From contig CAKKNE010000001.1 of assembly GCA_918797485.1 (NCBI GenBank), positions 2,790,001-2,854,000 of the forward strand: a DNA stretch of 64,000 nt. Direction: 5' to 3'. The translations under genes were made by a program, and so were the position numbers. The stretch is from Pelagomonas calceolata. Its lineage: Eukaryota. Shown here piece by piece: positions 14,798 to 39,137 of the stretch (positions within the stretch are counted from its first letter, which is position 1; every line of letters begins with the position of its first letter). The notes beneath the pieces are model-generated. The model had not been told where the DNA came from. It saw only the letters and a list, made by a program, of their open reading frames with translations, and searched no databases.

Positions 14798-17700
14798 ATG
14801 GAGGCAGTGGTATATAAACTCCAAATACTGTACGCCACAAATATTCAGGGAGCCGATGCTAACATGTTCTCGGCATCTCCTCGCACCTCTGACGCCTATG
14901 TGGTTGTCAGCTACCTCGGGGAAGAACTTGCCCGCTCTGCCGTGACTCTGAAATCGACCGCGCCGCTATTCCGAGCTCAAATGGCATCTCCAACCAGTCC
15001 ATTGTTTAGTGTTGACATCCCCCACGCTATCGTATTTGCCAGTGACTCCCAAAACCCTGAGATAATTATTGAGCTGCATGATCGCGTACCAAGGGGGAAG
15101 GACATTATTCTCGGCGTTGCATCACTCAGTCCAGCCGACCTTCGCCTTGCGGTTGGTCGTCGGATCGTCAAAGCACTCCAAAGCAAAGAATCGAGGAACA
15201 ACAACAGAAGTAGCCTGGTCGGTGGTGAGGTGCACGTGGCCGGTCACCTAGTCCCTGGAGAGCCGCACTTCGTCGTGCAGGTACTTGAAGCACAGGGACT
15301 CTCCGCTTTTCATCGACCCACAAATCTCGCATCGTTTACAAGACTGATTCCAGGCTCTGGTGAGGTTAGTCCGTTCGTCATTTGCTATTGGGAGGGAACA
15401 GAGGTGGGTCGCACTGACATCAAGCACAAGACTCGGCATCCAAGGTGGAACCCGCTCGGAAATACTTTTCAAATATTTGTGAACCCCGGCAAGTTGCCCG
15501 TAAGCTGCAGTGATAGCTCGCACCCTGAGCTCTGCTTTGAGGTATACGATACGGTCAGCTCTAGTGCTTTTGCTCGGAGAGGGTCTCTCCTTGGAACAGC
15601 GGCGTTAAGTGGCTCGGGGGAATTGCCACCCGTTTCATCACAAGTCGATCCAGATTGCCTCTCCTTAAAGCTTCGCACTCAGGGTGTCAACGGTAGAGAA
15701 GTGGCATCAGAATCAAGTGAAGGCGTGCTCAAAGTCCGTTTGGTGCTCAATGACGTCGTTCCTTCTATGCGGGACTGGATCCGCATTGGCAATCAGCCAA
15801 AACGTACACCGCCAAACACCCTGGACTTGTATGTTCTCGGTGCATCGAATCTTGCGTGCCGTGTTGGCTTTCTGAGGGTGTGGCTTAATGGCAAGCTCGT
15901 TCCGGAGGCTCCAACTACAATCAATGCGCCTGACAGCCACACGAAGTGGAGGGACAAAGATGGTTCTAGAACCATCAAGGGGCGGTTTATATTGAATGTC
16001 GGAACAATGTACAAAATCAAAGATCATGTGCTAATCGAGTTGTGGCAGACACGAAGCGAGAGGGAGAGTCAGTACGTGCTCCTAGGCCAATGTCGAATCA
16101 AGGACGGCATGCTCCGCAGCCCGCCCCCTCACCGAATCGACATGCCACTCAGAGCAAGTGCGACACAATCTGAGGAGGTTTCATCACGAATTCAGGGAAG
16201 CTTGTGTCTTTACCTTTCACCTCGTGTCTGCGACTCGCGGACGTTTGACTTAGCAACTGACGAAGCAGGACTGTGGATTAAATGCCTCGCACGGCGCCAG
16301 ATCAACTCCTCAAACTGGCCGTGGTACACCCTGCACCCAGAAGACGGGACTACTCCGCATAAAAGGATGTCCTTGCAGCTAATCTCAGCTCGCGGCATTT
16401 CGGAAGCGATTTATGGCGCTACAATTGAGGTCCTTTACAATCGGCGTCATGTGTGTTTTGCCGAAGCGAAGGGTGTAAGTACCACGCCGGGCAGTAAGGA
16501 CCACAACTACAACTCCGCGGTCTTCAACTCGATTATTGAGTTCTCAGCATATGACATATCTGCTGCAGGACACCAGTCAGTCTGGCCTGAACTGCGTTTG
16601 ATGCTGTGGAAAGTAACAAAGAAAAACGGGACTCGATATGGGTTTTTGGGAGAAAGCCTGGTAGCTGGAACAACATCTGCAATCAAGCGTCCGCCTAGGT
16701 ATACCCGCCGTGTGGGACTCAAACTAGTGCTGCCCTTAATCGCAAGACGTGATGTTCCTGAGGATGTTGACTCTCGCATCTCAGGAACTCTGATGCTTGG
16801 CATTTGTACTGCCGCAGAGCCAGACTTTTCTCACGCCGCAGCGTGGTGGGGCGCGAATTCATTCCCGTGCAAGATGCTGTTGATCCAGGTTTCTGGTTCG
16901 CGCGGTGGAAAAGATACATGCGATGCGCGTGCCGTGATAAGCTGGAACGGAGGCTACGTCGGAACCACAGAATCAAATCCGGCAGATCGGAATCGCTGCC
17001 GTTACTGGTCTAACTCAGACTTCTTGATTCCAGTACATCTTATTCCCGGCTCCGGCATGCTTCGCATCACGGTCCGGGGAATGAATCATATGCGGCGCTT
17101 CGAGCACCTATATTTGGGGCACGCTTGCATTCTTGTGTCGGCCACGAATCAGATGTTCCCGTTCCGCCGGACGTTAATACTCCAGCCAAAGGAAAGTGAT
17201 TCAACTTCTCGCATCCGCCCCACTCCCTCGCCATTGTCTGAAGATGACAGAGTTCGTGGGCCTGGAGTCATAGCGGTCGCGCCGACAAAGGTAGTCGTCG
17301 GCTTCACTGATGTTCACGGCGCACTGTCTGCCAAAACGCATCACCGCTCGGAAAATGCAGATGTTCTGGGTGAAGTCATTGTCCGATTGCATCAGCAAAG
17401 GCCAGGGTGTCCAATAAATACAGCATCGCTCCCCGCGAGAGGGAGAAATTCGCGCATACGACTCAGAATAACTCTCCTTGGAATCTCCGGTGCCATAACT
17501 AGACGACCTACGGCGACGTCACACTCAGTCTCCCAACCATGTCCTGTAGCTCCATGCGAGGACTTGTCAATAGAGGACGTGCTGATTGTCGTGTGCTACA
17601 AACAGCAGGGAGACGCAAAACCGACTAAAATGTCCATTTTGGCTCCTATGCCGAGTAAGTGTAGGAGGGACTTTTTTGCTAGCGCGGAGGAAGTTTTAGT

Positions 17701-20700
17701 ATGGCTGCCACTGAACTGGGACGCCGACCTGGCATGCGGTTGCAGTGCAGCATTCTGGATTGAGCTTCGGTCTGCGAAACAATTGCTCGGGATTGCATTT
17801 ACGGGAGTGAGCGCCCTGGCGAAGATCCCAAGGCGTGTCAGCGAAACCGATATCTCCTATCTCGAGTTGCGAAATAGGTTCAATGTGCGTTGTGATTCGG
17901 TAGCCGACTCGACATTCTCTCAGCGGCTTTTGCGACCAAGCAATGCAAAGCACAAGTGCGATTTCTTGGTGAGCTTTCCCGCATTTGCGGTGATGCGCGC
18001 TCGGATCCACCATCGGATACTGCTAGAGGAGGTGCAGCTCACTAAGCGGCGTGGGAAGCAAATGACTGGCCGGCGTGCAAAGTCAGGTCCGCTGCTTCCA
18101 TTGCTCTCAGCACTTGCCGGTGATGACATTATCTCCAGACTTAGGCTTGTTATGATATGTCCAATCTTTTTTGGTAGCAATATCCCCGAGAGACTTCCAG
18201 AGATAGGCGTCTATTGGTGTGGCGAGCGGGTTGGCTTCTGCCAGTACCATCCAGGGAAGCCTGACCGAACTGCTTTCTTGCTCCCATTCGGCCGCGGTGT
18301 CGTCAGTGCTCAGAGAAACAAAGACTTCCTAGAGCTGAGAGTAAGGAGCAAGCCCTCTACCAACACTTCCCTAAGAGCGGCACGCGTCACGCACGTGGAC
18401 TCAATATTACTCTCTTGGGATGAATTCCAACGACTGCCTTCGGCGCAGACGGACTATTACATAGACCCCTCCCACATACGGTCTCCATACAACATGAGCA
18501 GACTCGTCGCAACGCCACCAATTGAATTCGAGCTTTCTCGGGCCGGTAAAGCTGGTAAAGTAATGGCTGCCATATCAGATGGGCATGGAACTGTCTTCTT
18601 GCGCGCGGGGACCGGCTCGATCACTCTTCATCTTGTGGTGGAGGAGTCCCGTGCTTCAGCACCCCATGCAGTTTCGATCCAGCTGGAGGGTCTAGCATCT
18701 CTGCAAGACCCTCGATTTCAAGGGAATAATATGCGCGAACCAGCTTCATTCGCAACTACCGAAGGCAGTTTAGTCGGTGACACACGGTGGCCTGGGTCGA
18801 TTCAACGCTGGCCCTTTGCCTCTGTGTTTGGTCCAGGACCTCGGGGGGGCTCCGTGCGCAATCAAGCAGAGTGCAACAGTCCGCAATGGCATGGTTCTAG
18901 TCCGTGGAATAATATCGGTGTTGACTTGAAGAGTGCCTTTCATCTCCCAACACCGAGAGTCGTATGGCCTAGTTCTTCCACGCATCCCCCCTGTTCTATC
19001 GATCTCCTTGTTGTTCACTTTGGAAAGTACTCAGATAATGAATGGACAGAGGCCAGGCGCATCCAAGCCCAGGCCCGACAGGTTCTTGCGTGCAGGCGCA
19101 TTGCGCGTGAGCGCGCGAGAATAGTGGCATGTCAACCAGATGGTTCGGCTCTGGCTGCTGTTACATTGATCCAAAAAACATGGAAATCACACGGTCGGCT
19201 GCAGTTAAGGAAAGGCGCATCTGCAGTGACCAGTCTAATGCTTTTGAAGCTAGGGCCCAATAAGCGATCACCAGACGTGAGCTCATCAACTCACTGTGAT
19301 CGCGACGAATGCGACGCGGTGATCTGCGTTCTTGGTAGCGATGATCTTGTTTATTCACATTCGACGACGACTAAATATGATCCGTTTGTGTTGATAACGT
19401 TCAATGGAGTCAAAATTGGCCGGACATCCACCAAGTATAGGAGCACGCGACCACTCTGGCACGAAAAGTGCTTTTTGCACTTAAAAAGTACCATTTTCCC
19501 TGAGAGAGGCCAAGACCAGGGGACAATTGATACCCTCGCAGAGAAGCTCCCGGTTTTTGTCGTCATGGTGCTGCAACCGGAAGATCGAGTACGAGTGCTC
19601 TACGCGGCACTCGCCACGACCTGCGACTTCCAGAGGGTCAAAACTCGGGCCCACGCCGCGAGGGAAGTGTTTCTCGTCGCGCGCCACGGTGATCGACTAA
19701 TATGCACGGAAAACGTAGATTTCACGCAGTGTGATCGACGGCGATGCACGTACGCAGGTTTGCTAGCTGATCGAATCGGATTTCCTGCAACAGGGATTAT
19801 TGGCGGGGACGAGAAGACTAGAATCGAAGCACTCGTAGGTCGAGTGCTAGAATTGGAAATTTGGGCCAGAACAATCGAGTCTAATGCGCTTTGCATCGGC
19901 CGCGGGACAGTTGCCAATTTAACAAGAACTTCCATGCAACCCTGCATCCGTCTCATGGACTACTCGGGTGAGGAGACGCTGGCAGACATGCATTATTCTT
20001 TCGGTTTTGTGCGTCTTCAGGTTACGTTTTCTTGTAGTACAACACATTCCCCGGCCCAGCACACGACCAGTATGAGGTCCACATTGCGGCCTAGATCTCA
20101 ATTCCCGCGGCCTCGACCTTCTTTCTATCTTCAAGCATCCAAATTTACGTTAGAAATTGCCCACGGGTCACCGTGCCATCTGAGGTCGCTGCGCACCCTA
20201 GACCCGTATATAAAATTCACACTGGGTTTTTACACTCAACGCTCGTCAGTTCTGAGCGCTGTTGGCCCCATTGGCCCCTTGATGACCTGGCCGCCAGGAG
20301 AAGTTGTAACACTAGCTGGTTGGCATACTGCCCCATACTCTACCTTCAAAATTGAACTATTTCACGACCGCAGTCCTTGTTCAGATGATACTTTTGGTTC
20401 AAAGTCGATAGACCTTTCTTGCTGCACAAATCAATGGCACCCTCAGAAAGTGGCGATTTCTGCAAATGCCACACTCTCTTTTTCACTGACGCGAATGGAA
20501 ACGGGTGCTCCGGTACCACAAAAGTGCCAGGCAGTACCACAGCAGTCTTGCAGTTCCACCAGTCAAGGTCGCCTTACATTAGTCCCTGAGATTTGTAGCA
20601 CTTACAGAGGACATGACCTTAAATTTTACAAATTGACCGCCACACTCTCGCCGGGAACAGAGTACTGGGGAGCAAAGTGCAAGGACGCACGGGAATTCTT

Positions 20701-23700
20701 TGTTCTTGCACGCATGTGTGGACGATGTGCGAAGACGACCACTAAACATGGCTGTGATTGGCGAGAGGAGGTTCTCTCGCTACCAGCTGAATCTATTCCT
20801 GATGTTATTCATAGGTCCTCAAGCCACGAGGTGACATTTCAGCTGTGGAATAATAACTTCCTCGTTGGTGAAGCTCGTAAACACATTGGCAAATGTCTGA
20901 CACAGGTTGGAACTCAGTGCGCGTTTGAGCTCCGTCTATCGCGTCCGCATTCGATCAAGACAAGGGGAAGTTTGCATCTCTGTGTGGTAGCAAACCCCGC
21001 ATACGATTATTTCACGGACGAGATTGCCGGGCTCGCCCCCGGGAACGAGTTGTTAGTGGCTATAATCCAGGCACGTAACCTTCCTGTTACAGAACGCAAA
21101 TCTGACCCCCTAGTGACTGTAAGTTGCAACGGGGAGTACACGTCTTCGTCATTGAGGCCTATTTCACCCTTCCCAGTTTGGAATGAGGTCCTAACAATGC
21201 GTGCATTCGCAGATTTCGATGGTGCTAATGCGCTTGAGTTGATGGCAGATATATTCGACGGAGATGTCTCCTCTGACGATGTACTTTTGGGAAGCGGTAG
21301 GATGTCAATTTCGATGTTAGCCGACGGTGTGACGAAACGCACGTGGCATGATTTGGTTGTAAAGCCCAGTCAAAATGGTATGCCTCCTTGTTCTGACTTG
21401 AGAAAAGGTCGATCTGAGCTCCTCCCTAGAGCCAACCATCCCGAAGGCCCTACACTTTCATCCACTCGTGGGGAGCTGGAACTTGCTCTTCAATGGCGGC
21501 ACTACACTGAGTCATAGTTTTTTTAGACATCCTTCCCTCTACTTCAAGCTCTGCCCACGAAATTTTGGTATCTTTGCGCCACTTAGGTATAACATAAATA
21601 ATGATTACTTTGAGACATTTCAAGAGCCCCCCATCCACTGCGCACGGCCCCCAAACGAACTACTCATCAAACTAATTAGAGCAAGGGGCCTGCGGGCGCT
21701 CGAACACGGACTCTTTGGTCAAGTAACTGCGGATCCATTTGTCAGAATGCATTTAAGCGGTGAAATACACGAGTCGAGAGTTTCCCACCGAACGTCATGT
21801 CCGATATGGAATGAAAGGTACAGGATGCGCACCCCTGACTCTGTAGAATCTTCACTGAAAGTCATAGTTTTCGACTGGAATCTTGGAAGTCTTCCGAATG
21901 TACTAGGCATGACGGACATAGCTTTGAGCTTACTAATGAATCGCAGGACCCTTCGGCGATGGTTTCCACTCAATGTTGGCGGCGATAAGTGCTTCACGGG
22001 TCACTGCGGGGAAGTTGAGCTTGCCTTGCGTTGGATACATAATCCTGAGTTTTCTCCCCACGACGACGACGACGATTATTTCGATTTGGTGCCCAATTGC
22101 CTCAAATTCGCAATAGTTCGGGCGCAAGGGTTCTGCGGGGAGTGCAACTCACTCACAACAGCATCGCTTCATGCTTCGCATGAATTTGGCGCTCCAGCGT
22201 CTAATTTGAGTGCAACTCATAGGACAGCCCATTCGACCACACGTATCGAAAATACCCGAAACCCTATTTGGAACGAACACTTTCAATTTCCGTACTACAC
22301 ACCAGAAGGGCCAGAGCACAGAAGCGCCGGCTGTGGTTCCGTACTTGCTATCGAGCTTCTTGACCATACGCATATTGGTACCTTGGGCTCGTTGGGTGTA
22401 GCTGCAATAGACATAAGTTGTCGCCCTCGTCGCTCCTGGGTACACGCTGGGTCTGACCACAAGCTGGAGCTCGATTTGCTGTGGACTTATGATCCCCTCC
22501 TGGAGCCCGAGGTCGTCTTGCGCGTGCCGTGGCTGAGCCTTTCTCAATTCGCCTTGTCGTTGTGCAAAAATGACTATACTGTGTATTTACGACTGGATGT
22601 TGGCGGATGTGTCGCACGGACATTTGCGACTAGATTTTCTGGCAAGAGTGCGGACGTAGTGTGGCCTGACGACCTCGTACTGACCTCTACAATGCGCTCG
22701 CTGATTGAGAAGCGCATAGAAGTGTGTTGCTTCTTGCGGGTCGCACACCCAGGCGGTGTCAACGACACGTTGATTGGCCGCGTGGAGTTATGGTGGCCCC
22801 ACAGCTATTTATATGATACAGTAACAAGACAGCGACGACCTTGCTTCCCTCGGGAATTTTTCGTTCAAACGAACATGCGGAGTGGAAGCACAAATTGTGT
22901 GGCATCGAGGCTTGCGCTCCTACTGACAGTGAGTAACTGGTCGCCGGACCTCAAAAACTCTGTCTCCCGAAATGACGAATTGTGTTTTGACATTTTTGAT
23001 GACAATGCGGGAGAACACCTTGGAAGATGCGCTTTGTGTAGCACAATGTTGAAGGAAATAAAAGCCAGATCCTGGTTAGATAATGGTCCATTGTGTTCTG
23101 TTAATGGACAGCCCAGTAGTTTCAAATTGGCCCCATGGTCCACTCGGCATGCTGCGGTGGCGGCATCCAACGCTAGTAGTCAAATTGTTCTTGCCCTCAG
23201 CACTCGTCTGAACTACTTCAGCGTCTCTCGGTCAGGGCGGATAAGCCAAAATCCAACTGTGACCAGCGGCAAGTTGAGTATCATGCAACCGAGTATTCAA
23301 ATTGCAAAAGATACCATCTGTGCTGTGCTACATGCAGCTTGGAGGTTCATACTAGCTGGTAGACATACTATTCTGCACGTGATAGACGGAGTCGGCCTTG
23401 GTGCATCTCCTGATTCTCCCAATACCACGCATGGTCCTGAAAGCTGCCCCATTTCTTCAGCTGCCTACTGCATGGTACGCTACGACAGCGTTGAGCTTGG
23501 ATGCACCAGTGTTTGTGCGCTTGAAACCGATACTTGTTGGAATGCACTGATCCCAGTACCTCCTGCCCGTCTCATTGTAGTGGAGGTTTACGATTGCTTT
23601 CCAGCTCGCCTACCCGAAGAAGGCACTTCGCTTCGTGGGAAAGTAACGCTGTCGCCGGCACAGCTCCTAGAGCTTCGCCAGATCACGCGACGCCAGTCTG

Positions 23701-24826
23701 GACAACAGCGACGTGCTTATTTGCACCAACAAATTTATACGGATGTGAAAGTTGATTATAGCATGTCACATCACAAAGCAGATCGCGAGGACAAGGAAGA
23801 CAACAAAATCACCGGCCAAATGATCCCAAGAGTCCTGTTGTCGATGACAGACATGGCAGCCACTGAACTCCCAGCTTTGACAACCTCGTCGAGTTTGCTT
23901 GGCCGTGCGTTGCGCACAACGCAACTGTCATACGTCGTACTCCGACTACTAGACAGAAAGGCTCGGTCATCAACGACAAGAGTCGCGGGGAAGCGCGCTC
24001 TGTGGAAGAACGACAGCGCATCGATCGTTGTAGATGAGTCAATGTTGAGCGAGGAACCACTACATGTGCAGATCTGGAGCGAAAGAACAGCACTTCCAGA
24101 TAATCTACTGGGTGAGTCGCAGTGCATAAATCAATTTTCACTACGTGGGGGACACCCGACTCGCTGGTTGATTTGCACACAGGTGAATCGCGTACCCGGC
24201 TCGATGCTGTCATCAGTGCCAAAGGCAAACCAACCCCAACCACATTCGAGATGGGGCGACCCGGTCATCGTCACCAGGGGATACTATCATGCTCACTCAG
24301 CTTTGAACGACAACAAAAGTCAGTTGAACAACACGGATCTAATGCGTCGAGGAACCTGGCAGTTGTCATTGGCCTTGCAGCAACTATAAATCATCATGCT
24401 GAGGCGGCTTCAGAAGCTACTTCCCGTGTGATAAAACGCATTTCTCGGCGAAAACCGGACGGCTGTGCTGGCCATATAGGAGACTTGGCTCGCTTTGCGT
24501 TGGACGAGGAGATATGCAACAACAAAGGACGGAGAAGTAAAATTTTTGTTTCCGCACAGGCAGCTTTTCTCGCCCTCGCCAACCAAAGGCAGGCAATCGT
24601 TGAGAGGAAAGGGGACCCTAGTATAGTCAACAGCTTCGGCGAAGAACTTGCTGATGAAACCTATCACGCCCCACATGGTGGCAAGGCAGCATCAGAAATT
24701 GAGAACCACATAACGCTCTCCTCCAGCGATGCTGGCGTTCATAGTGGCGTTGATTCAGTGACAGGAATGCCTTGGAGAGCGAACAACTCGGGGTTTCGTT
24801 GTTTCTTTCTAGGGTTTCCTGCTTGA
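14798..24826 (+). CDS. Giant multi-C2-domain protein with IQ-like motifs (~3,300 aa; predicted introns ~21499-21586 and 24112-24182)
   Basis: Repeated C2 signatures (SDAYVVV, SPFVICYW..PRWN, YDPFVLITFNG..PLWHE, NELLVAIIQARNL..SDPLVTV..PVWNE, NELLIKLIRARGL..ADPFVRM..PIWNE); IQ-like RRIQAQAR and LIQKTWKSH; three ORFs joined in frame by splicing. Confidence 0.75.
24120..24182. mobile_element. Introner element (63 bp, shrunken); intron 24112-24182 on +
   Basis: TIRs cagtgcataaatcaa / ttgatttgcacacag; TSD gtgagtcg/gtgaatcg (7/8); splicing gives DNLLGESRTRLDAV and joins ORF 21468-24389 to ORF 24122-24826. Confidence 0.85.
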
Positions 24827-25209
24827 GAATTTCTAAAACACCCCGTGGGACGTTTTTCTCTTGACAGCGATCCCCCAAATGTTATAATAAGGGCCAACGG
24901 GGCCGCATCCTAGCCTAGCCCTCTTGTGCCATACCTAAGTATTGTCCTTTTTTATGAGCCCCGCAAGTAGCCCCGCCGAGCGACGAGCGTTGCATCACTT
25001 GTTGCATCCGCCATCTGGACCCCCCCGGGCCCGGGCAGACGGGAATTCCGACGGGAGTGACACATGTGACGAACCGGCGAGCCCGGCCTTCCGGCGACTC
25101 GGAGAGCTCTTCCCCCTGACGGGTCCCGCTGGCACAGGAATACCTTTTTGCCAATGTTGGCGAGATGCGGGTTGCTGTGCCCCCGACGCGCACTTGTGAA
25201 TGTCACGAT

Positions 25210-28200
25210 TTAACTTAGGTGGACACTAAGGTCCGATGCCGTCACTTTCTTTTTTTTGGGGGCTGGAGATATAAGATACATCATGAGTGCAAGAGAAGAG
25301 GTCACTTCTCTGCGTCGATTGAATCTCTCTGAAGCAGGTCTGACTGGCCTGTGTGGCGTGAGTTGATATCTTGTAGCTCGCTTAGCTCGCTTATCAGTAT
25401 CTGTGAAGCACTGGCGCAAAAGATCCTGGCCTTCGAGGAGGGCCTGGCCGTGGCATGTTGTCGTCCAAACTTCCAGTCGAAGGCCAACATCGTCGGTATT
25501 TTCTGGAAGAGGCAAAAGAAAACTTTCAGCATTCCAATGCGGTTGATTATGCTTGTCTAGTCGCCCCGGAGCAGTGCGACTCACTTCCTTCTCGCACCAA
25601 AACAAACGCACGTGGGGGGCAACCCCGCCAAGTTGAAACTCAGCTCCGTCAATAATAGTCAAGTAAATTGAAGGCTCCACGACTGGAAGATTTGGCGTTC
25701 CAAATGCCTCTGACAAAGGGTCTCCTTCGGGGGTGTCATCATGCCCATCATGCACATCATGCCCATCTGCGTGGAAATCTTCTTCTTCAGCACAGTCAAA
25801 AGTCACCTTTACCTCTTCTTGTCGCAGGTTTGTCGCGTTCTCGAATGCGGCCAACATGGCGCCAGGTGATGCTGGAAAATGCTGGGCATCATTGTATTCT
25901 ATTTTTACTAGCCGCCAGCCTCTCCTTGGACGCCCTGTGCCGTTGACCACTTCCTTGACAAATATATCACCACCGATGTCATTGCCTGTGTAGAAATTAA
26001 AATTTCATGGCGCCTTGCTGTCGCGTCAATCTGCACGCCATCGACGCGACGCCTGCTCCATAGCGTGGCGGTGTGGGTATTACACCACTCGATTCAGTCA
26101 GCGGGGCCGCGTTGTCGCCGAGAAAAATGACTTTGTGAAGAGTAGTGCACCCGACGCACTGGTTGATTTACGCACAGGCCATACAACTCGAACCTTCCTT
26201 TGTGGGTCGTGGCAGGAAAGTCCAATCGATTCCCGGATTCCTCGGATCGATGAAAAGCGATATAAGATCGTCTACCGCGACGTTGAATACTAGTTCTGTG
26301 TGACGTGCAGCTGCGGCTTGATTAAACGGGTCGTGAGGATCTCGGGCCCGTCGCCTTAAGTCGGCAAGTAGTGCTACCGGCGAGGCGCCCCCGGTCACAG
26401 TAAGCCCGTTCACACTCAACAAAATCCAACCTGGTCTAACTCGAGCTTTGGTCGCTGGTGAGTTTGGGTCGAGACGCAAAATCGAATAATCTTTAAATAT
26501 TGCCCCAAGGGGACAACGAGCATCAAAGAAAATTACCCGTTTGTGAACGTGACGTGGTAACATAAAATCAAAATTTACAACGTAGGTAGAAGTCGAGCGA
26601 AGACTATCTAAAATATCGGAGAAATCTTCCTCGTCGTGAACGGGCCTTGAGGCAACTCGGGTGAGAATCATACCCCCTCTGATACACTTGATACGAGCCG
26701 AATTTGGCATTACCACCTTCACCTCAAGGCCACCTTTCGAGTGCCCACGCCCCCCTGTCGCAGCTGTCCAACTTATCCCTAGCGGCTTCCGAAGATCAAG
26801 GCTTATTGTTTTCTCCCGGGCCGCAGCTGTGACCTGCGAGACTTCTTCGCAACGCTTGGTGGCGACCAGATAACGTTTCAGGTTACGCAGTGCGTGAAAA
26901 TGGTGCCTCCATTCTATCCTTGCCGTAAAGGTCAGGATCATTTCTTCCATGGGAGCATTCAGCGCCGTCGAAAGCTGCTCCCGGCAGCCCAACTCCCGGC
27001 CATTCAGAGAAACAGCGCGCCATCCGAGACACACACCAAGGCGCGCAGCTTGCATGCCCTTACGTAAGCCCAAGACTGTCAAGTTGTGTCCAGCTCTTAA
27101 GGCAAGTGCCCGAGCGTTTGATTTACAGTTGGCCGAAAGTTTTGTGAGCTCCTCATCGACCACACCGATTCGAGCTAATAGTGGTTCTAATGAGCTGAAT
27201 GTGCTGCGATAGTGATTCATGGCCTCACTCACGTCGTCAGTCTCGCCATATTGTCCCCCGGCATCCCTTCTGCTGCCGCATCGCTGATCACTAGCATTCG
27301 CGAATCGAAGTGACATTTCATGACTGACCCGGGCGTGAGGTGTGGACGTCACCCTGGCTGAGAAACCACTACGGCTGGCCACAAGTGCGGCCAGCTCATC
27401 CCTCTCAACGTCGCCCCAGATTATGCCAAGGTTTTCTGTTGGGTCGATGCGAATGTCCATCCTGACGTGAGCTAGTTCCCTGTGCTTGATTGCCAGGGAT
27501 GAAGAAGGCAGCGCTCTACGGCTTGTTTCGCGACCAGCGTGCTGTTGTGCAACTGCACTTCCTGCGGTAATTTCTGATCTGGGTGCCGCGCATTTGGTTC
27601 CGTGGCCAGCACGCTGTTCAACTGTTTCCGTCGTAATTTCTGATCTGACTCCGTCGTAGAACATGCCAAGTTCAATGGAATGTTGCAGGCGACTCATCGC
27701 GCGCATCGCTTCACGACGACAGACAGCCTGCGTGGCAGAGAGCGCCCTCCGCTCTATAGAATCGGCTGCTCTTTCAAATGCACTTGTGGCATCTTGACTC
27801 GCACGTTTTGCATATTCCGCAGATTGACGCAAGGCGTGCAGGGCGCTAAGGTGCTTAAGTTCACGAGTAGTTCTGATCTCATCATCATATTTAGCTTTGT
27901 TTAGGCAACGGCGGACCTGTATGCTGAATGTCAAGTGCCCACGAAGGCCACCAGTCGGGTGTGTGAGCATCTGCACAAGTTGGTGCGGTTCTTTGTCACC
28001 AACCCAATGTGTTTGCAGCGGGATGAAACATTCACCGTACTTTGAATTGTCCCCCGTTTCTCCCTTGGATTTCACTTCGATCTGTAGCTCCTCGACTGAT
28101 GTGAAACAACTAGGTTCTGCCATGAGTTCCAGGAAAGCCTCCCCTCGGGCCCCTTCCCTCCCTAGAGAGGCCTCCTGTGGGAAATCAACCAGTGAGTCAG

Positions 28201-31200
28201 GCTATCCTGAGAATTATTGCGAGGGACCTCCGTGAACCTCCACGCCATCCGAGCAGACACAGTGGCGGGATACCATCGCGCGAGGTGCTTAAATTTGGTT
28301 TTCACACAGGACGCAACGATATAAACCCCCTCGATTCGCGGATATACCGTCCAGTTACTAATTTGAACTGTGTATGACAGTTCTTTGGCTGCACTACTCG
28401 CGGACTCATCACGTGTGAACTCCAGCTCAGTAGGGAACTCAGGGCTCTTTGGCCCGAGTTGCCTCCAAGTCAGAATGAGGGTCCCAGAGAGCAACTGGTG
28501 CTCATACTCCCCGCCGTGATCTAGCAGCTCGGTCGGCATCAATGCAATACGTCCTAGGCAGCATGCTCTTGCAGCCGATGTAGTAGCACACCACACCTCG
28601 ACGGACAGCCCGTATGGTGGCCCCGACGCAACAGAGGGTATCTGGACGCACGCAGCAGATCCACCACGACTCCACGTTGGGCTGAGAGTAGACCATTGTG
28701 CAGGAGTTCGATGGACTTCACTATCATTGCAACGCACGACAACGAAAGGATGGCCAATCCCGACGCTATTTGGATCGAGACTGGTGGCACGTAGAATGCA
28801 TAGATTTGAGCAAACAAGGGTCTTGTCAGCGATTGGTGCACGCTTTATCATTGCTGTGTGTACCCCGAGGCGTGCAGAACCGTCCAACAGTATGGATTCT
28901 GAGCTGAGTATAGCGGCACTCATGTCGCCAATGTGTAGCTTATACAGGGGCTCAGGAATGAAGGTGAGTTGAGACCTTACCCATCTCAACTCAACTTCCA
29001 ACTCTCCGCTTACCACTGGATATGATTCCGAGGCCTGATATAACTTTCGCCAGGATCGAAAAGGCCGTCGATGACCCAGTTCAGTCAAGAGGTCTACCTG
29101 CGTTCAAATCGAATTTCAGGCGCCCCATTTTACCATCACGCGACATGTCTCTGTAACTGCGTCTCCAGACCGGAGGCCTCCAACCAAAGAGCCTGGGTCT
29201 AGAAAGATCGATCCGGACCGAGTGGTTGGGTAACCCTCCGACGTGACCGGGCCTGGTACCAGTGGCCCGACTGGAGACCCCACTGGTTTAGTAACCCAAC
29301 TCACTGGTTGATTTCCACACATATGTCCACTCTAGAAGAGCCAATTAACTGACAGTTTGCCCTATCTCCTCCTCCTGTAGGTCGTGAGCTTGTGCCTGCG
29401 CGCGGAACCCCCGTTCGCATCGTCCACCGTCGCCGCATCGCTCTTCTCCAGCTCCCGTTGCTGCTGCGGCGCGGCGGCGCGACGGCGTCCGCCGGATCGT
29501 CCGGGTGAGCAGGCCTCCGCCCAGGCCGGGGGACTCGAACGGGCTCGCGACCTCCGCCAGGGGTGTCGCCTAGGCACCGTCCTCGCGTCGCGCATCCGCC
29601 CACGCCGATGGGCTCAACAGGCTCGACGGGCTCTCGCGCCGCGCGTCCCCGGCCGAGGGGCTGGGTAGCACAGCAGTAGTCACGACGTCGTCGTCGCGTA
29701 TCGTTGACGACGACGGCGCGCCGCCGGCCAAGATCAGACTCCTCTGCCGCCCCCCACGCCATCCCGTGGCCCGCCAGTCCAAGTTAAAGTTCGACAGGAC
29801 GCCGAGTCAGCGCTGCATCTGGGACAGTGGATGACATCTAGAGTCAGTTGCCTGTCGTGTGCGTTTGTAATCGCTTCGTTTATGTTTCCTATGCTCACAG
29901 GCAGCACAAAGGTCTCGTGCCAAGACGGCGACCTGTGTGGAAATCAAGCAGTGCGTCGGGTGTAACCCACACCGCCACGCCATCGAGCAGGCGTCGCGTC
30001 GATGGCGTCAAGGTTATGATTCAGCCTTTTGCGAGAAACCCGCGAAATTTGATTTCTACACAGACGGCAACTGCGCTCGGGGTAGGACGGTCGATGCCAT
30101 TCGCCGACCACGCCATTTGATTAGGACGTAGGGTTTGCAGGCGCGCTGATCGCTAGACCCTTTTGGCAACGAGTTCCGAGGTCTTAACGCACGGGCTTGG
30201 GCAATAGCAACGTAAAGCATGTTTGGGGCACCAGCGCTCTCGCCGTCCTCCAGATCGAAGAATCCATGCACCGGGTTGCAACCCCACTCCAACACCACCT
30301 CTACTTCCCCGGAAATATCAGTAGCATTGACAGGAACACGGCCTCCATCCGCCTGTGTGGAAATCAGTCAGTGAGTTGGGTTACGCCATCGAGCAGATGC
30401 AGTTCTGGGGACAACGCCGTGGGGCGCCTGAAGTTTGATTTCCACACAGGCATCCACCCCGCGCCCGAGACGCGCACGGTCTGGTCGCCGGGTAAGGCTC
30501 AGCCATTGCTGAAGTGGCTGGACATTTCTGGATGATCGTCTGGCAGCCAGAGATTGAAGTTTGAGTTCGGCGCCATAGTCGAGCTTTGGCGCCACTGCAA
30601 CCTCTAACCCCCCCGAGGAGATGTCGCATGCATGAAAAGGAACTGCGCAGGCTTCGTTCCAAACAGGGCACGAGGTTCTAAACCGCTCGGTGAACCAAAC
30701 TTTGGTACCAAAGCGCAGTCTAACGAACGGATCGTCTGGTATTATCGTGGTATCAGGTAGATGTCCAGGTTGGTCTAACCCGCGAGCTCTTACTAGCGTG
30801 ATTCGAAGCTCGTTTGGTGTGGCATCGGAGCCTGACTCTGAAAGAGATAATCGTGAAAGAATGGGATTGTGTGTCCACCGCGCCGTTAGCTCGACCTCGC
30901 CGCACAAGCTAGTTCTCCCGTAGCTGCACGCGTTGCTTGGCCCTGTTGTGCTCGACAAGGGAAACCAGCTGTGTAGTCTCGACTTGCTTTGAAGTGACGA
31001 CACCGGGACTACTATGTGGCCCAAGACATCATTATTTGACAAAGCATCCCAATCCTCTATGGTGATATGTAGCATTGCACTTTGCCCATTTTGGTATACT
31101 TCGCCGTGCTGAATTTCAAAAGAGAAAGCTGCGTTCCAAATGGGGTTCAAGCACCTTCTCACCACAGTGGTCTCTGTAACATCCATAACGCCTCCACCAG

Positions 31201-34200
31201 CAGAAAGAATCGTGACCCTCGCTACTGGGTCGCTTGTTGAAGCCTCTAGCACGCCCCGATCCGCGGCTGGCAGTCCTCGAGCTCGAAGCAGCGCAACATG
31301 TAGCTCATTAGGTGCAGCGTCGTCGTGCGCGCACCTGCTTTCAGATCTAGCTCAGAACAAACAAGTAATGGCATTGGACACCGTCCTGCACGGTAGATCA
31401 AAGAATGCAAGCGTGGGGTTGTGAGTCCACCTCGCCGCCACTTGCAGGGTACCATACGGTCCGGGATTCGCTGGTTCCGCTGTCAAGACCTGCGCGCGCG
31501 GGAGTCAGTGGGAGTCATTGCGCACACATTCGCACCTTGCATGCACGAGACCCGGAGCCAAGGTTCCCCCCAAGCTGTAGCCAAAATCTATAGGCCAGCC
31601 CCACACCAAAACCAGGAAGTGCATTCTCACTTAGCTCGATAAAACTGCGCCCCATCACTCGCTCGCTTGAGATTTTGTGGCTGCCCTGAACAACTAGTTC
31701 CAAGCCAAGTGGCTTGAAATCAACGTCCGATGCGGGGAGAATAAATTGCTCACCCAGCTCCTGCTCCAATTCCGCAACATCAATAGACTTGTAGCTATAT
31801 TCTTGCTCACCTACTCCATTCATTGAACGAATGCCCACCTTTGCATTTTTTGCGACCATATGCGCAGACACAATGCCCGGGCGTGCCATGGACCTCGACA
31901 GTGGTGCCGCCCCCAAGAGCGATCGAATTTGCAGACCGGATACTTTATCATCGTGAGGATGCGATCGCCCCAGGACGCGAAGGCCTCGCGTCCTGAGCAA
32001 GATGAGGCGAAGCTCGTTTCGATCGCGAGGGTCTTTTTTATCGCAGCGGTTGTCGTCAAAAGCGCCAACTAAAAATTGAGCACCATCCATGGTACTCGGC
32101 GTAATGCTGTCCGTTGCATCCTGTTCGAGGGGTGAAGAACATAGCTCGTCGTCATTTAGGTGATTCATCGATGCAAATGTAATGTGCCCGATACGAAACG
32201 CCGACGACGACACGCTATTATTTTGGAAACATCTGATCTCTGTGATTGCAGAGTCATCCTCTGCAATAATTTCAAGCTCGAAAGAAATAACTCCACATGG
32301 TGCACCTAGAGCTTGTCGAAGCTGCACGCATACTGGTTCAGAAGGCGACGTCCTCACAATAGCTCGATGGCTGCAATGTAGCATGCAGCGTGCTGGCGTA
32401 AGGTGAAGCTTGGCATGCCCCACCAGGCTGTCCGGTGATCCATTGGCGCGACTCCAGATCTGCATTTGAAGAAACTTCCCCATGAGCACGTCAAAGCTTG
32501 TGTGAAAGACCAGCGCCTCGTTTGGCCAGTCACAGGTAGCACAAGAAACTGACTTGATGGAAGTTCGACGAAAAATGCGACCCACTTGCGTCGTACAGTA
32601 GAGCCTGGTTGGCGGACTCGATGCTCTGCGGAAGCGAAGGGCCCGCAAGCACAATTCAGCTCCCTGCAATTGAATTTGTGGTACTTTGAAAAGATTTGAG
32701 GGACCCGAGGAATCCCGTGCTACTGAAATACCCGCCTTTGTCACCTCGTGGGTCAATTCAGTGCACGTGAGCGTGAGCGAGATGAGACCTTCACCATCAC
32801 TCTCCTGCACCCCGCGACGCAGAAGCGGTAAGGTGAAGCAAATTGGCGCCTCCAGAGAAGTTAAGCATTTAACCGCAGTACTAGCAACAGCAACAAGCAC
32901 CTCGGAAACTGCGTCGGAGTGCCACAGCTCAACGTAGAGGAGGCAATGTTCGAGGACACCCGCAGTTGCGGGCAAGTAAGCATCTGCAGATAAGTGCGTG
33001 TCCGTCGTTCGAGTCTTGCGAAGAGTGGACCCCCCCAGCTTAAAGCAGAGATACGAAACCGCGGCGCCATGATTTCTTTTGTTGAGCTGTTTGCCTGGCC
33101 ACCATGCAATCTGCACATTGTGCACACCTACTGAGAAATATCGATTTCTCTCCAGCCAAGCTGTGAAGCTAATTTTCTTTACCACATTTTTTTTATTTTG
33201 TTCGATCCCAACAGAAGGAAATCTACATTCTGGTCTGCCGGCGTGCATGGCGTTGACAACTTTATCAAGTATACATGAAGCCTTGCCGACTGTAGTATCT
33301 GGTCGCTGCATATTTTTGTTACAGACTTCTATTTGGAGAGATGTGTCCAGCAACTCCACATCAGAGATATTTACTGTTACCGCGGCTTTCCGCAGTGCAC
33401 TGCTCTCACCTGCGTTTTGCCATTCTGCGTCAAGAGCTAAGGCAGTATCGGCAAAATTATTCGTGCCGTTTGAATCTAGGACATGGGAAGGCCAGGCGTG
33501 TGCTACACGACGAGCATGTTGAGCTTCATGACTGCTGTGCACATCGTCGACGATACCAATATTTTTTGGGGTCAGTATTGAAGTATCACCCGGAGACTTA
33601 CTGTAGCTGTTTACAGGGAAGGAACGTCCAGAGGCGCACGTGACACGATGTCCTAGACCAACTGCAAAGCTAACAAATGCCCTGGTGGGACGACCGTCTT
33701 TCTCAAGAGAAAGGGTCACGTCACATTCTGAGAGAGGACGCCCCCTCGGATGTTTTCGCCGTTCCATCAGAAGACCCCGCAGTGAATAGTCTGCAGAGCC
33801 AACTTTCTTGGGAACTTGAATTCCATGTGACACGGAAATTCGAAGAACAGCATCCTCAAGGATGCCAGATAAAGTCGAAGGAATGGATAGGGTGAGAGGT
33901 TTGTGATGCGGCCAGTTCACGGTTCCCTCCATATCGCCATATGTCAGAGATTGAAAACGTGTTTGCCTCAAGAGAGTCTTAGCCTGCATAGCCTCCAAGC
34001 ACACATTTAAAGTGCGATGTGATCTGTGCGGTCGATTCTGGTGTGACCCTGCGGCCGCCTGTGCGGACATCGACGAGTGAACTTGGGTCGAACCCAAGAG
34101 ATCTTACAGCCACCACGCCACTGAACCGGCACACGGTGTGCAGCATCGGGTTGATGGTGCGGGGACTGTTGAAGCTTTCTGACGCGGATGGCACCGTCTC

Positions 34201-37200
34201 GGCCTCGTGCTTCTCGGCTGCGCGCCGCTCGGCCGCCGCAATTCCACTTAATTTTAGTGAGGAAACATTCAACTCAATAGTCTCCTCTGCCACTCTGCTC
34301 AAGCGAAACTTTACGAAGGCATTGTTTAAAGTGTCTTCGCGTCGCCGGCGCAGGGGGAGCGTACAATAGGATGCAAGTGAAGAGTTTGCCATCGGGCTCT
34401 CCAGGATTGCTTGTCCAAGAAATAAGTCGAGGTGCGCCTGAGACTCATGCATGTCACCTTTGGCAGAGTAGATATCAAGAGTAACACCAATTTTGTGTTT
34501 AGTGGGCACATAGCGATCGAGAGCCCGCCTGTTGGCTGGGGTAAGGCGAAAAATGTACGGCTGCCCACCGAAGCAGAGTTGCCCCCCCTGTGGAGGTAGC
34601 CCGCATCGATTGATTAGGTGGGCATTTTGTAGCGAGCTGCAGAATAGTGGATTTAGGGAAGGCCGCACTATTTCCTCCTGGCCAACTTTGCGGCCGTGCC
34701 ATCGCACAACGGCGTATGGCCGAATTAGACTTTTGAATGGACGGGACTTCACCTACGAAAAACAAGTCCATAGGTCGAGAAGACGGTACGATGTGAACCC
34801 ACCAAGTCACTTTTGCAGCCAGTCATGTCCAAGTCCAATATGGAAAGTTGCAGTCTCGTGACGTCTGTGCACTCAGGCGACCCCGCGCTGTAGTGAACAT
34901 CAAACACTTCAACAAACATAACGACACGACCTGGAACGAGGCGGGCCACCCGGTCTAACCTGGAACTCGCCGAAAGTGGTTTGGGGGGCTCAACAAAGTT
35001 CAGCTCGACGCGACCGGTATTATTAGTGAGCTCATGGCTATTTACAGAGCAGACGCCAAAACAAGTCTTTCTAGCGGTATCTATGCTCGAGCTCGAGAAA
35101 GACGTACCCAAAATTTCGAGCTTGAGGACTGGAGCGACGAGCCCGTGGGCAGGCAAGTTCAATCGCACAGTGGGACTTGAAGCACAAATACATGCTTCAC
35201 AAGCAGGTTCGGACGCGGCGAACCAAGTGGTGGCTACCCTCTCCCCCCATGTGACCCGACACTCGAGTGAAGCGACGTCTACTTCTGGGAGTAAGCCTGT
35301 AAGCCGTTCCAGGGATATTTCAATTCGCGGTTGTGGTACACTACAAAGGGCAGCTGTAATCATGGTACCCACATACGACTTGACTACCTGCAGCCTTTGT
35401 CGCCAGTGTGGCGTCTCAAGGCGGCGTGCAGTCAATTGCATGCGAAGGTAGCCCAGCGACGAAGCGGAAGTTCGCGAATTTTCGGTGCACACACTGGACT
35501 TCACAAAGACCGATACATTCCTCCTAGCTTGGATACAATCCAGGAAGCGTTCATTTAGAATAGCAACGCCACAGGGCCGCCCCCCCACGCTGCGGGAAAG
35601 TTCGATTTGCAAAAGAAACTTGTTCTGGTCGTAGCAATCGCCACCACCACCGCTAATGGAGGAAGCACTATCGCCGGTTAGGATGAAGTGTCCGACGGCA
35701 CAGGGGAGACCTTTGTTTCGCATCATGACAGAACGAGAATGACGGTCACGCATGGGGACCTGCAAGTACCCGGCGACACAGCCGTTCCACGTGAGGCGAG
35801 TCCATGCTCCTCTTTGTCGGCAAGAAGTTGTCCACGCTCCAAGGCCTTTGCTTTGGGCCTGGTACCGAGAAACGGTACATCCAATGTGAACAGAAGCCCT
35901 AGGAGTGATGTGAATCAAATCCTCCAGGAGATCAAGAAGTACATTTGATGCGATATTTTGAGCTTCTGCCCTCCTCAGCGTATGGATTGACAGAAGCACG
36001 GTGATGCTTGCGTGACGGTACCCACCTTGGTGTCCTGCCGTCACAGTGAAAGTTGCACGTGCGCCAAGGGAGCTAAGGAACGCATCAGGTGAGATTGTTG
36101 TTGCGTGGCTCAGCCAACGACGCTTGCACAACGTTCTTTTATGAAGAATGAATCGGAGAAGCGATTTCTTTGCACGGGGACCAAAGTATTTGGGTTTACG
36201 AGAGGTATCACAAGTCAAGATGACGAAATGATGCCACTCAGGTGAGTCCAAACCCACGCGCATCAGATAGGGCGATCCGGATGGCTGTCGGGTGTTTCCG
36301 CACCAATGCACAGTCACAGAAGAGCAAGACTCCACAGGCATGGGACTAGAAGCTGAAGATACAGTCACAAGCTGAAGCAAAAATTGACCTGGATACTGAA
36401 CCTCGCAACCAGCCGAAAGAAACTTCCCGCTTGCCGAAGCTGATGCTGACCATCGTGGTTGAATTAAGGCCGTGTTGGTTACTATCTGTGTCGCCAGTAG
36501 CTGAGCTGAACTGAGGCCCGCACGCTGTAGAAAACGATGATGAGGGAGCGTGCCTCGCAGTATGGCAGGCGTGCTCAAGACCACCAAATCGGAGGCTGCG
36601 ACCCTCGACAATGTCTCGGTGGAGGGCTTAGCCCGTCGTCCCAGATGAGTGGCCGTCCGCAGGACTTCCATATTCCGATTGACACTCGTGAACGGAAGAA
36701 GTATTCTCACACGATTTAGCAACAACGTCAAGAGCTGCCTATTCGTTGCGCGCCACGCGTGGCACTCCTCCAGAAAGCGGCGGACCCACCGCTGGATTCT
36801 TTCAGCCGCGGCGTGCTGTGCTCTCGTACCTTTGATCCGCAAACGGACCAAATAACAACGCACTTCCGCCTGGATTTTCTTCGCGGCTGCTCGTCGTCCT
36901 ACAAAACCTGTGTTGAAATCAATCAGTGGTCCGCCGACGCCGAGGACGGGAGAATCGTACTCGTCACCCTCCAGGCCATCGAGCAGACGCACTTCCAGAC
37001 AAGTCGCGTCAATGACGTGAGGACTGACGTGTCAATTGTCCACGCGTCTGCTGCCTTTGCGCGGGCCTAGTCGAACTCAGATTTGACTTCCGCACAGCAC
37101 CAAGCGTTGGATCGTCCTACAAGAGTTGATGATTGAAGATTGATGATATCGTGCAGCTTGCAGGTGCCTCCGTCTTTCTGACTTTCCCCTTCTAGCTTTG

Positions 37201-38384
37201 CACCTCGAAACCCACCCCCGGCCCAGACGTGTAATCTGTCCGGCGACGGCATCATGTAGTAAGCGAAATGCTACTTCATTGCCCAAGGCATGCGGCTCCC
37301 CAGCAAGCCTCCAGCATTCTCGACCAACGAGGAAGACCGGTACACGAGATAAAAGATCATCACAAAGACACACAAACCATGATCCTGGCTTTGTTTGTAA
37401 CAATCTGTTCGCTGCTCTACAGAGCCAGACAAGCGTATCCATGCATGCGCGTATCGCACGACGCGACGCGTTGCCGCGGAAGACACTTTGAGCTCTTGTG
37501 GCAAATAAAGTCGCACGTGTGAAGGTCACGTCCCTAATGGCTTGCCACCGCTTTGTAGCTCGCCACGAGAGCCAGAAAGCTTGAATGACTGTCGCAGCTG
37601 TTACATCAGCCTCAAACTGTGCGAGAGTTTGAATTCTGCGACCATCTCGGTGTAGATTGTTGAGGCAGCGCACGTGTAACGCGCAAAGCCCACACAGGCG
37701 TTTTTGCGAACGATGGTCAATATGTGTAGCAGTCCGGTGACACGTGCAACAACACGTGCTGACTACAGTTCTGAATGCTCGAAGTCGCCACCATCTTTGA
37801 ACAGACGCCACTCGGGGGTCTAATCTGCGCTTAAGGTCTAATGGAATCATTGTACCTAGGAATCGCCCGCACGTCCGTAAAGACTCTCGTTGGTGTGACA
37901 TTGCCTTAGTCATGGCTGTCACGCAGTTTGTGCAGAGCAACTGCTGGAGATCAAAAACAAACACCGATGCCCGGCATGTGGCACATCGTGCACAAGTATC
38001 CCTGACTGTTTTCAGTGCATCGATGTCTGCACCATGGCACGATGCTTGCCAACTCACAACCAATCGTTGTATTCGTCCCGCGGCCCGCTGAAAATTTACG
38101 AATTCGCGTTTGGAGGAGATCATTTGACGAGCAAATACCCCGCGCTGAATTCTTTGTATAGCTACCGCGCTTTGACTTTCATAGTGCAATCGCACTATGC
38201 GTTTTGGTCGTCTGCCACTAAAATGTGGTTGAACGAGCTGTCCGGTTGACGTTGATCCCTCATCATCCACATCCGCCGGGCAGTGGCAGTTCGTCGTAGG
38301 TGGCCGTAGTATCGCGGCACGCAGCATGTGTTGCAGTCTTAGGGCAGCAGCGTTTCGCCGTAGCTCCATCACGGCCATCCACAC
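25210..38384 (-). CDS. Giant IQ / Cys-His zinc-finger-like / multi-C2 / PDZ-like protein (~3,800 aa, >=11 introns)
   Basis: ORFs 37077-38384, 34749-36992, 33979-34752, 31515-34097, 30368-31252, 30056-30298, 28162-29088, 26168-28123 and 25210-25950 chain in frame after removing introners and short introns (34753-34802, 31490-31535, 31335-31391); the intron at ~29375-29790 has unresolved borders. IQ motifs (IQRIQRGVFAR, IQAFWLSWRA, AQSVFRGNASR), C2 motifs (SDPVARV..NPIWN, NELRITLVRARGL), PDZ-like repeats (LGISW..LEVKVV, LGAIF..PGWILLSVNG). Confidence 0.75.
25986..26177. mobile_element. Introner element (192 bp); intron ~25986-26184 on -
   Basis: TIRs ctgtgtagaaattaa / ttgatttacgcacag; decayed TSD gtcattgc/gccatac(a); splicing gives GSSCNDIGGDIFVKEVVNGT in frame. 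Confidence 0.85.
28175..28309. mobile_element. Introner element (135 bp); intron 28175-28317 on -
   Basis: TIRs ctgtgggaaatcaa / ttggttttcacacag; TSD gaggcctc/gacgcaac (5/8); splicing gives GVYIEASLGREG..LELMAEPSC in frame. Confidence 0.85.
29098..29322. mobile_element. Introner element (225 bp); intron 29098-29330 on -
   Basis: TIRs ctgcgttcaaatcga / ttgatttccacacat; TSD aggtctac/atgtccac (6/8); splicing gives IGSSRVDLLTELGHRR in frame. Confidence 0.85.
29933..30063. mobile_element. Introner element (131 bp); intron 29933-30071 on -
   Basis: TIRs ctgtgtggaaatcaa / ttgatttctacacag; TSD acggcgac/acggcaac (7/8); splicing restores C2 motif PRAQSPSWHETFVLPV. Confidence 0.92.
30353..30449. mobile_element. 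Introner element (97 bp); intron 30353-30457 on -
   Basis: TIRs ctgtgtggaaatca / tgatttccacacag (perfect 14 bp); TSD ccatccgc/gcatccac (6/8); splicing gives GADGGRVPVNATDISGEVEVVLEWGCNP. Confidence 0.92.
34059..34231. mobile_element. Degenerate introner element; predicted GC-AG intron 34059-34239 on -
   Basis: Acceptor-side end ctgtgcggacatcgacgagtga resembles ctgtgtggaaatcaaccagtga; TSD gcggccgc/gccgccgc (7/8); donor-side TIR not recognisable; removing 181 bp joins the two ORFs in frame (LKLSGI|AAAGSHQ). Confidence 0.6.
36908..37097. mobile_element. Introner element (190 bp); GC-AG intron 36908-37105 on -
   Basis: TIRs ctgtgttgaaatcaa / ttgacttccgcacag; TSD tacaaaac/caccaagc (5/8); internal gccatcgagcag motif; splicing gives IQRFVGRRAAAKKIQAEVR. 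Confidence 0.85.
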
Positions 38385-38484
38385 GCTGGGCGCGATTAAA
38401 GTACAATATCACAACCAGGACCAGCAGGCATAACCACAAGCCATGCCAGCTTGTAATTATAAGGCCTGCATACCGCCTACCGTA

Positions 38485-38717
38485 GTAGAGAGAGAAACCT
38501 ACTAGCCCTTCCTACCCTAGATATGTATCTCCCACTCTCTAAATTTGAGTCTATACAGCGAGTGTCTATTGCACTACGTTGTAACAACAATTTACTATAA
38601 AACACTCTCGTAGTTAGGTTGGCCCAGCCTTTGGCTGGTGAGCTAGGACCCTGCTACCTCAGGCTTACATAATGCTGCAACATAGTACTCTTGCTAGGCC
38701 CGGGTTATGGGCCCACA
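38485..38717 (+). mobile_element. LTR/terminal-repeat-like element head, copy 2
   Basis: Direct-orientation match to 11408-11657. Confidence 0.65.
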
Positions 38718-38831
38718 AGGTCTCGCCTATTGACGTAGAGTGTTTTACAGTGAATGCCTAGAAAAGAAAAAGACAAATCACCTAAATAGAAAAGAAAAGA
38801 CAAATCACCCAAAAAGAGAGAAGATCCAGCG

Positions 38832-39137
38832 ATGGATGAAGCTGAAATAAACCGGCGGCTTCTGCAAAACGCGCTCGATCAAGCAAACGCTAAAGCTGAA
38901 CAGAAACTCGAAGAGCGACTCAAAGCACTGGAGGCAGAGCTCACCAAGAAATACCAGGATGAAAGGATTGAATTGCAAGACGCCGCGTTTGAACAATCAA
39001 GAGGTGAGAAGCCATCAACAAAGGAGACGTACGTCTTCAAGGAAGCAATGTTTGATGCTGTCAAGGCTGCCAATCACAGTAGCTACGTTGATAAAAAAAA
39101 CCAAATACCCAAAAGGTTTTTGGAGTTACTTGCTTGA
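38832..39137 (+). CDS. Short coiled-coil ORF, probably element-derived
   Basis: 101 aa A-rich ORF right after repeat copy 2 (LLQNALDQANAKAEQKLEERLKALEAEL). Confidence 0.3.
   Translation: MDEAEINRRLLQNALDQANAKAEQKLEERLKALEAELTKKYQDERIELQDAAFEQSRGEKPSTKETYVFKEAMFDAVKAANHSSYVDKKNQIPKRFLELLA

Follow-up and report, generated by a model that had tools for sequence, protein, structure and literature searches.

Two giant genes stand side by side on opposite strands in the 64-kb stretch of Pelagomonas calceolata DNA analysed here (referred to as the window), gene A coding for a multi-C2-domain protein and gene B for a protein with IQ-like, C2 and PDZ-like domains (Table 1). Their coding sequence is interrupted by nine copies (63–225 bp) of an element that has terminal inverted repeats (TIRs) along with target-site duplications (TSDs) of 8 bp. 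All copies are decayed and none has a perfect TSD. A preliminary description, based on the DNA sequence, had interpreted eight of them as introners, i.e. transposons that generate introns. It missed the ninth copy, which lies in the intron at 24416 and was revealed by its RNA joint, its TSD and a profile match.

Table 1. Host genes, introner introns and other introns in the two giant genes. RNA joint, joint found in metatranscriptome contigs; E, profile E-value; p, probability of the TIR trace.
Feature	Position	Strand	Length, splice sites	Element	TSD identity	Remarks
Host gene A	14798..24826	+				multi-C2-domain protein, 3,241 aa from first ATG once 3 introns are removed
Other intron, possible old introner remnant	21499..21586	+	88 nt, GC-AG		5/8 (TSD-like)	faint TIR trace, p 0.036; RNA joint
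Introner intron 1	24112..24182	+	71 nt, GT-AG	24120-24182 (63 bp)	7/8	TSD copies 24112-24119 (intronic) and 24183-24190 (exonic)
Introner intron, ninth copy	24416..24559	+	144 nt, GC-AG	24424-24559	5/8	E 0.0012; RNA joint
Host gene B	25210..38378	-				3,814-aa protein; IQ-like, several C2, PDZ-like domains; 11 introns
Introner intron	25986..26184	-	199 nt, GT-AG	25986-26177 (192 bp, near-full-length)		E 1e-41; RNA joint
Introner intron	28175..28317	-	143 nt, GT-AG	28175-28309	5/8	E 2e-22; RNA joint
Introner intron	29098..29330	-	233 nt, GT-AG	29098-29322	6/8	both ends match profile; RNA joint
Other intron	29396..29813	-	418 nt, GC-AG			72% GC; no significant TIR; RNA joint
Introner intron	29933..30071	-	139 nt, GT-AG	29933-30063	7/8	junction colinear with orthologues; RNA joint
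Introner intron	30353..30457	-	105 nt, GT-AG	30353-30449	6/8	E 3e-13; RNA joint
Other intron, possible old introner remnant	31335..31391	-	57 nt, GT-AG		5/8	TIR traces, p 0.0025 and 0.027; RNA joint
Other intron, possible old remnant	31490..31535	-	46 nt, GT-AG		3/8	TIR trace, p 0.018; RNA joint
Introner intron, corrected border	34059..34194	-	136 nt, GT-AG	34059-34186 (decayed)	4/8	E 3e-4; RNA joint 34057 to 34194
Other intron	34753..34802	-	50 nt, GT-AG		5/8 (TSD-like)	no TIR trace; RNA joint
Introner intron	36908..37105	-	198 nt, GC-AG	36908-37097	5/8	E 7e-11; RNA joint

The TIR is matched at 17 places in the window against 3.1 expected, a number reached in none of 100 shuffled sequences. 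Seven of the eight elements first described have paired TIRs where these had been placed, with 10–14 of 16 bases complementary; the element at 34059 has only its left TIR there. Flank identity peaks at 8 bp in six of these eight elements; in the other two the 8-bp value is the highest or close to it. When the borders were taken from RNA, 49 of 72 TSD positions were identical over the nine elements (p 2e-14), and 36 of 54 when the two donor positions were omitted (p 1e-10). A profile built solely from metagenome copies (see below) was run over the window; its nine matched places are confined to 24.1–37.1 kb (best E-values 1e-41 to 1e-3). In the rest of the window its score did not exceed 3.7 bits, inside the 2.2–4.1 range of five shuffles. 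An internal motif ascribed to five copies is closely matched in four copies and degenerate in others. One base has likely been lost from the intronic TSD copy of the intron at 25986. The element at 29098 contains an unrelated internal stretch (about 29160–29290) that has no match in any other copy compared.

Splicing was analysed by comparing four metatranscriptomes from four studies (X15, X17, X19 and X20) with positions 21000–39500. All nine introner joints are present in X17, X19 and X20, and that of the ninth copy in all four. Seven of the eight introns predicted from the sequence agree exactly with these joints. The eighth had been drawn as 34059–34239 with a GC donor; the RNA uses a GT at 34194, 45 nt short of that border, and these 45 nt code for 15 more residues. 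The apparent TSD at 34232–34239 (7/8) is a chance match within a GC-rich exon, and the true TSD of this copy is the poorer one of Table 1. Among the joints listed, the same three data sets also skip the five other introns of the two genes; 20 further joints were found beyond those listed. In X15 the depth summed over 29638–30254 reaches 5,162, while the flanks have about 13, which points qualitatively to many other copies.

The joints could be read as coming from wild alleles that never carried the element, since an empty site and a spliced product look alike and the RNA runs are environmental, with single-nucleotide polymorphisms (SNPs) relative to the window. The same contigs, however, also skip introns of 46, 50 and 57 nt. 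Unspliced X15 contigs with many of the same SNP alleles run through the elements at 28175, 34059 and 36908 and through nearly all of that at 29098. Moreover, DNA metagenomes share 0.91–0.92 of the window's words, the RNA runs 0.73–0.88. We therefore regard empty alleles as a very improbable source of the joints, and splicing as their explanation.

The claim that removal of the elements joins open reading frames (ORFs) in frame held once all introns were taken out; the eight elements alone were insufficient, as the ninth copy and the five other introns had to be removed as well to give the full frames of both genes. With a single one of gene B's 11 introns kept, whichever it is, the longest open frame drops to 2,169–3,571 aa. 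The part of gene A upstream of 21000, where the RNA comparison began, is a single open frame. Of three peptide motifs said to be restored by splicing, only LLGESR spans a junction; each of the remaining two sits a short way downstream of one. In an alignment with orthologous proteins the junctions at 29098 and 29933 are free of gaps. Directly at two other junctions, 31489–31450 and 29395–29365, the gene B protein has 7–12 extra residues compared with several orthologues; these may be loops of variable length or else leftovers of old insertions that became exonic.

Within the introner introns the TIRs are flush with the acceptor, and their distance from the donor is exactly 8 nt, or 7 nt in a single copy; the second copy of the duplication opens the downstream exon. 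As the element ends read CTGTG...CACAG, either end can serve as AG acceptor. This register bears on the possibility that ordinary miniature inverted-repeat transposable elements (MITEs) inserted into pre-existing introns, which the presence of five other introns in the same genes might suggest. The register speaks against it, and the same register is seen at 79 of 80 sites outside the window. The notion of MITEs in old introns is largely refuted and very improbable.

The copies outside the window were obtained by an exact search with a 24-base end pattern in one-eighth of a metagenome collection, which yielded 121 loci. Of the 123 matches, 18 were unpaired or truncated and were dropped; the other 105, which had full flanks and a partner end, came down to 101 distinct sites after removal of four duplicates. 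Further TIR-paired copies, as anticipated by the preliminary description, thus exist outside the window. Extrapolation from the one-eighth sample gives about 1,000 metagenome stretches with one end. Over the 101 sites, identity between the flanks reaches 0.82 at 8 bp, against 0.19–0.33 at 2–7 and 9–12 bp; 39 sites have a perfect 8-bp TSD, and the mean is 6.5 of 8 identical positions, compared with 2.8 after permutation. Full-length copies measure about 203 bp (22 of 101 are within 195–204 bp), and at least two subfamilies can be distinguished, with mean identities of 90% and 86%. The genes adjoining the copies are diverse.

These sites carry the same splicing signals. Where the TSD is at least 6/8 identical, GT or GC stands at a usable edge in 79 of 80 sites (32% expected), in 25 for one orientation, in 35 for the other and in 19 for both; the donors comprise 48 GT and 17 GC. 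Among sites whose flanks are long and whose periodicity is clear, all 34 keep their codon phase when the element is removed with one duplication. In 39 sites, the strand predicted to be sense is open 32 times and the other strand nine times. Ends lacking AG lie on the donor side in all 11 unambiguous cases (p 0.0017). Between the exonic and the intronic copy of the duplication, GC has changed to GT five times and the reverse once. Together, the RNA joints and the metagenome copies bear out the introner mechanism proposed in the preliminary description: a GT or GC donor derived from the TSD, the terminal CAG as acceptor, and removal of the element with one TSD copy.

A few metagenome copies are longer, namely L077 (445 bp), L118 and L074 (324 bp). 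L077 and L118 have extra internal sequence in common and may be nearer to an autonomous parent. Unpaired ends with more than 300 bases of room proved to be mostly ordinary short copies with one decayed end.

Taken together, it is very probable that the nine copies interrupt the two giant genes as introners, spliced out with one copy of the 8-bp duplication. They were likely inserted by cut-and-paste transposition, probably by a hAT-type transposase in trans, and likely belong to a family already listed for the host. According to this mechanism, a transposase supplied in trans would make an 8-nt staggered cut and insert the element. As the RNA joints show, the donor consists of the two leading bases of the upstream duplication, and the acceptor is the terminal CAG of the element, usable in both orientations. 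One duplication copy is left after splicing, and thus the reading frame is restored whatever the length of the element. Selection would spare only those coding insertions whose target, read along the sense strand, happens to begin with GT or GC. Later, it would keep the acceptor end, and decay and shrinkage would affect the repeat on the donor side, the duplication copy in the intron and the interior. Across the copies, the acceptor end is better preserved than the donor side. One introner intron has a strong hairpin fold (z -4.7), as predicted by the TIRs; the hairpin may have a role in splicing.

Several observations weigh against this interpretation. X15 contigs are mainly unspliced, the joint at 24416 being the sole one among those listed for X15, and minor contigs lie inside the 29098 element in X17 and X19. 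Both kinds of contig may represent library DNA, pre-mRNA or other copies. Elsewhere in the orthologue alignment, most junctions covered sit in loops whose variability among orthologues precludes proof of an exact, scar-free fit. The exact 24-base selection favours young copies, and the metagenome loci may span several pelagophyte species. In seven of 39 sites neither strand is open. None of 75 junction probes found an empty site among the metagenome loci, which is a weak test; two weak matches (73–78% identity) look paralogous. Finally, no transposase was detected by Pfam in the 47 ORFs of the window, as the preliminary description had maintained, or in 110 of 138 long ORFs of the metagenome loci, and viral contigs gave 0 matches to the family.

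The family combines an 8-bp TSD with short TIRs, which is the pattern of hAT elements in the published descriptions consulted, and hAT is the likeliest class in view of the duplication and the published label for the main P. calceolata family. The earlier suggestion of a hAT-like transposase agrees with that label; no such enzyme was found in the ORFs searched. Alternatively, the introners may have been moved by a non-hAT enzyme of another superfamily with duplications of about 8 bp (P, Merlin or Mutator types), or spread by an RNA route. An autonomous partner was found neither in the window ORFs nor in the metagenome loci or the viral contigs. The hAT label apparently derives from a RepBase match of a non-autonomous element (Gozashti et al. 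2025), and related 203-bp families in the table of that paper are given as unknown or Crypton. The strict 8-bp duplication with short TIRs speaks for hAT, though, and a site-specific duplication at insertions of either orientation is in keeping with DNA transposition rather than reverse splicing. A non-hAT enzyme or an RNA route is rather unlikely.

All nine copies fall within 13 of the 64 kb, with none detectable in the other 51 kb (probability of such a span 2e-5). Their density is one per 1.4 kb, compared with one per 34 kb calculated from the published count. The GC content of the window is 51%, that of the flanks of the other copies 65% on average; putative centromeric troughs of P. calceolata have 52% GC (Guerin et al. 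2022, PMC9481584). We infer that the window lies inside such a low-GC trough. The same paper gives 2.2 introns per gene in low-GC regions versus 0.4, with lengths of 119 versus 214 bp.

A TIR trace starting exactly 8 nt past the donor, i.e. at position 9, is seen in three of the five other introns (Table 1; 21499, 31335 and 31490); the remaining two gave p 0.55 and 0.74, and the combined p of the five is 0.0015. In these five introns, 13 of 30 positions outside the donor agree with the downstream exon (p 0.02). Downstream exons start with GT or GC in 13 of 14 cases, and upstream exons end in AG in one of 14. Length falls with TSD identity (rho 0.36). The three short introns with faint repeat traces suggest an ageing series. 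A possible, still doubtful, extension is that the low-GC region, putatively a centromeric one, is a graveyard of introners, where old insertions pile up locally and internal deletions shorten them from 203 bp to ordinary-looking introns of 46–88 nt. Against this, flank GC is uncorrelated with length or decay (rho 0.02 and 0.13) among 99 metagenome copies, only four of which are low-GC, and the window's other intron-bearing genes show no trace. Moreover, the remnant test came after a look by eye, and the sample is two genes. A probable 51-nt intron of FAE1 (41683–41733, from protein alignment only) was rejected as a remnant, its TSD-like identity being 2/8. If true, the graveyard would explain the excess of short introns in low-GC regions of P. 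calceolata and provide a full series from transposon to plain intron within one gene. The dense local cluster of aged copies could be new. It would allow the loss of the transposon signature to be followed and hence show how many ordinary introns hide a transposon origin.

The 418-nt intron at 29396 was rejected as a member of the family, having neither a profile match nor a significant TIR. It is GC-rich inside a 51% GC region, has one short match to the internal motif of the family and is possibly captured foreign sequence. A second repeat at 38440–38800, just upstream of gene B, contains a 19-bp inverted repeat (38590–38755) without a clear TSD. Its summed X15 depth is about 977, and it is 90% identical over 157 bp to one of the metagenome loci (L021); it probably represents another MITE-like family. 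Nested inverted repeats at 1013–1446 (arms of 40, 36 and 17 bp, 434 bp in total, 3-bp flanking match) are a possible further MITE. Palindromic or inverted-repeat patches occur at 14320–14440, 46690–46780, 49770–49915 and 54568–54821 and include a pure G/C hairpin tract as well as an array rich in GGTACC.

The genes of the window follow an order (TTL, kinase, COPB2, WTAP-like, C2, C2-IQ-PDZ, FAE1, CFAP58, IQ, kinase, CBS, MIF4G) that equals the order in annotation rows Pca_1p15250-15400 on P. calceolata chromosome 1, where the WTAP-like and CFAP58 slots are unnamed genes. This order points to that species, or to a very close sister, as the host. The best named relatives are pelagophytes. RNA contigs of about 10 kb unite the ORFs of gene A via the GC-AG intron at 21499, at a place where the published table has two consecutive C2 genes. 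The published annotation may thus be split there, which is of relevance for gene prediction: in RNA contigs gene A is one 10-kb transcript.

For P. calceolata, Guerin et al. 2022 (PMC9481584) report 956 putative introners, whose TIRs are conserved and whose donors are GT or GC, and an intron length peak near 210 bp. The elements described here have the same GT/GC donors, AG acceptor and conserved TIR, and element plus duplication (203+8) give 211 bp. Eleven P. calceolata families are listed in Gozashti et al. 2025 (PMC12130899), among them fam2 with 340 copies, 202 bp, a TIR of 13, the class hAT and the entry ‘co-opt 5′ carry 3′’. In a comparison with fam2, fam3 and fam39 from that source, which give 281 GT and 42 GC donors, there is agreement in length (202–203 bp), TIR (13–14), predominance of GT over GC and the co-opt 5′ carry 3′ mode, as far as described features go. 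The published table gives no TSD length for fam2, shown here to be 8 bp; the window copies differ from these families by being decayed, 63–225 bp long and without a perfect TSD. In the introner supplements searched (PMC9481584, PMC12130899 and Gozashti 2022), neither the TIR string nor the consensus was found. Matched by description, the elements are likely the already listed 202–203-bp introner family. A title-level search, which does not prove absence from print, gave no publication on the 8-bp duplication or an ageing cluster in P. calceolata. The mechanism is in print and the family is very probably catalogued already. The case is therefore modest as a discovery; as a textbook illustration of introns gained by transposition, in an alga that ranks among the most abundant of the ocean, it is well supported.

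The same mechanism is known from other algae, according to Gozashti et al. 2022, a review (PMC11282704) and a dinoflagellate preprint (bioRxiv 2020.10.14.339549). In Polarella glacialis, ILE classes 6, 8 and 10 of that preprint likewise take the donor from an 8-nt TSD and occur in both orientations; they differ in their dinoflagellate host and in also using GA donors. Non-autonomous hAT MITEs, in the descriptions consulted, share short TIRs and the 8-bp TSD with the family, and differ in that no hAT transposase with these ends was found in the ORFs searched here. Introner elements of Aureococcus anophagefferens were reportedly described by Huff et al. in 2016. They are the parallel drawn in the preliminary description and, according to other papers, also carry one splice site, obtain the other from the TSD and insert in either orientation. 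Aureococcus is a related pelagophyte, and its fam1 is listed as co-opt 5′ carry 3′ in PMC12130899. It is a different species, the CFAP58 protein of the window being 58% identical to the Aureococcus cluster.

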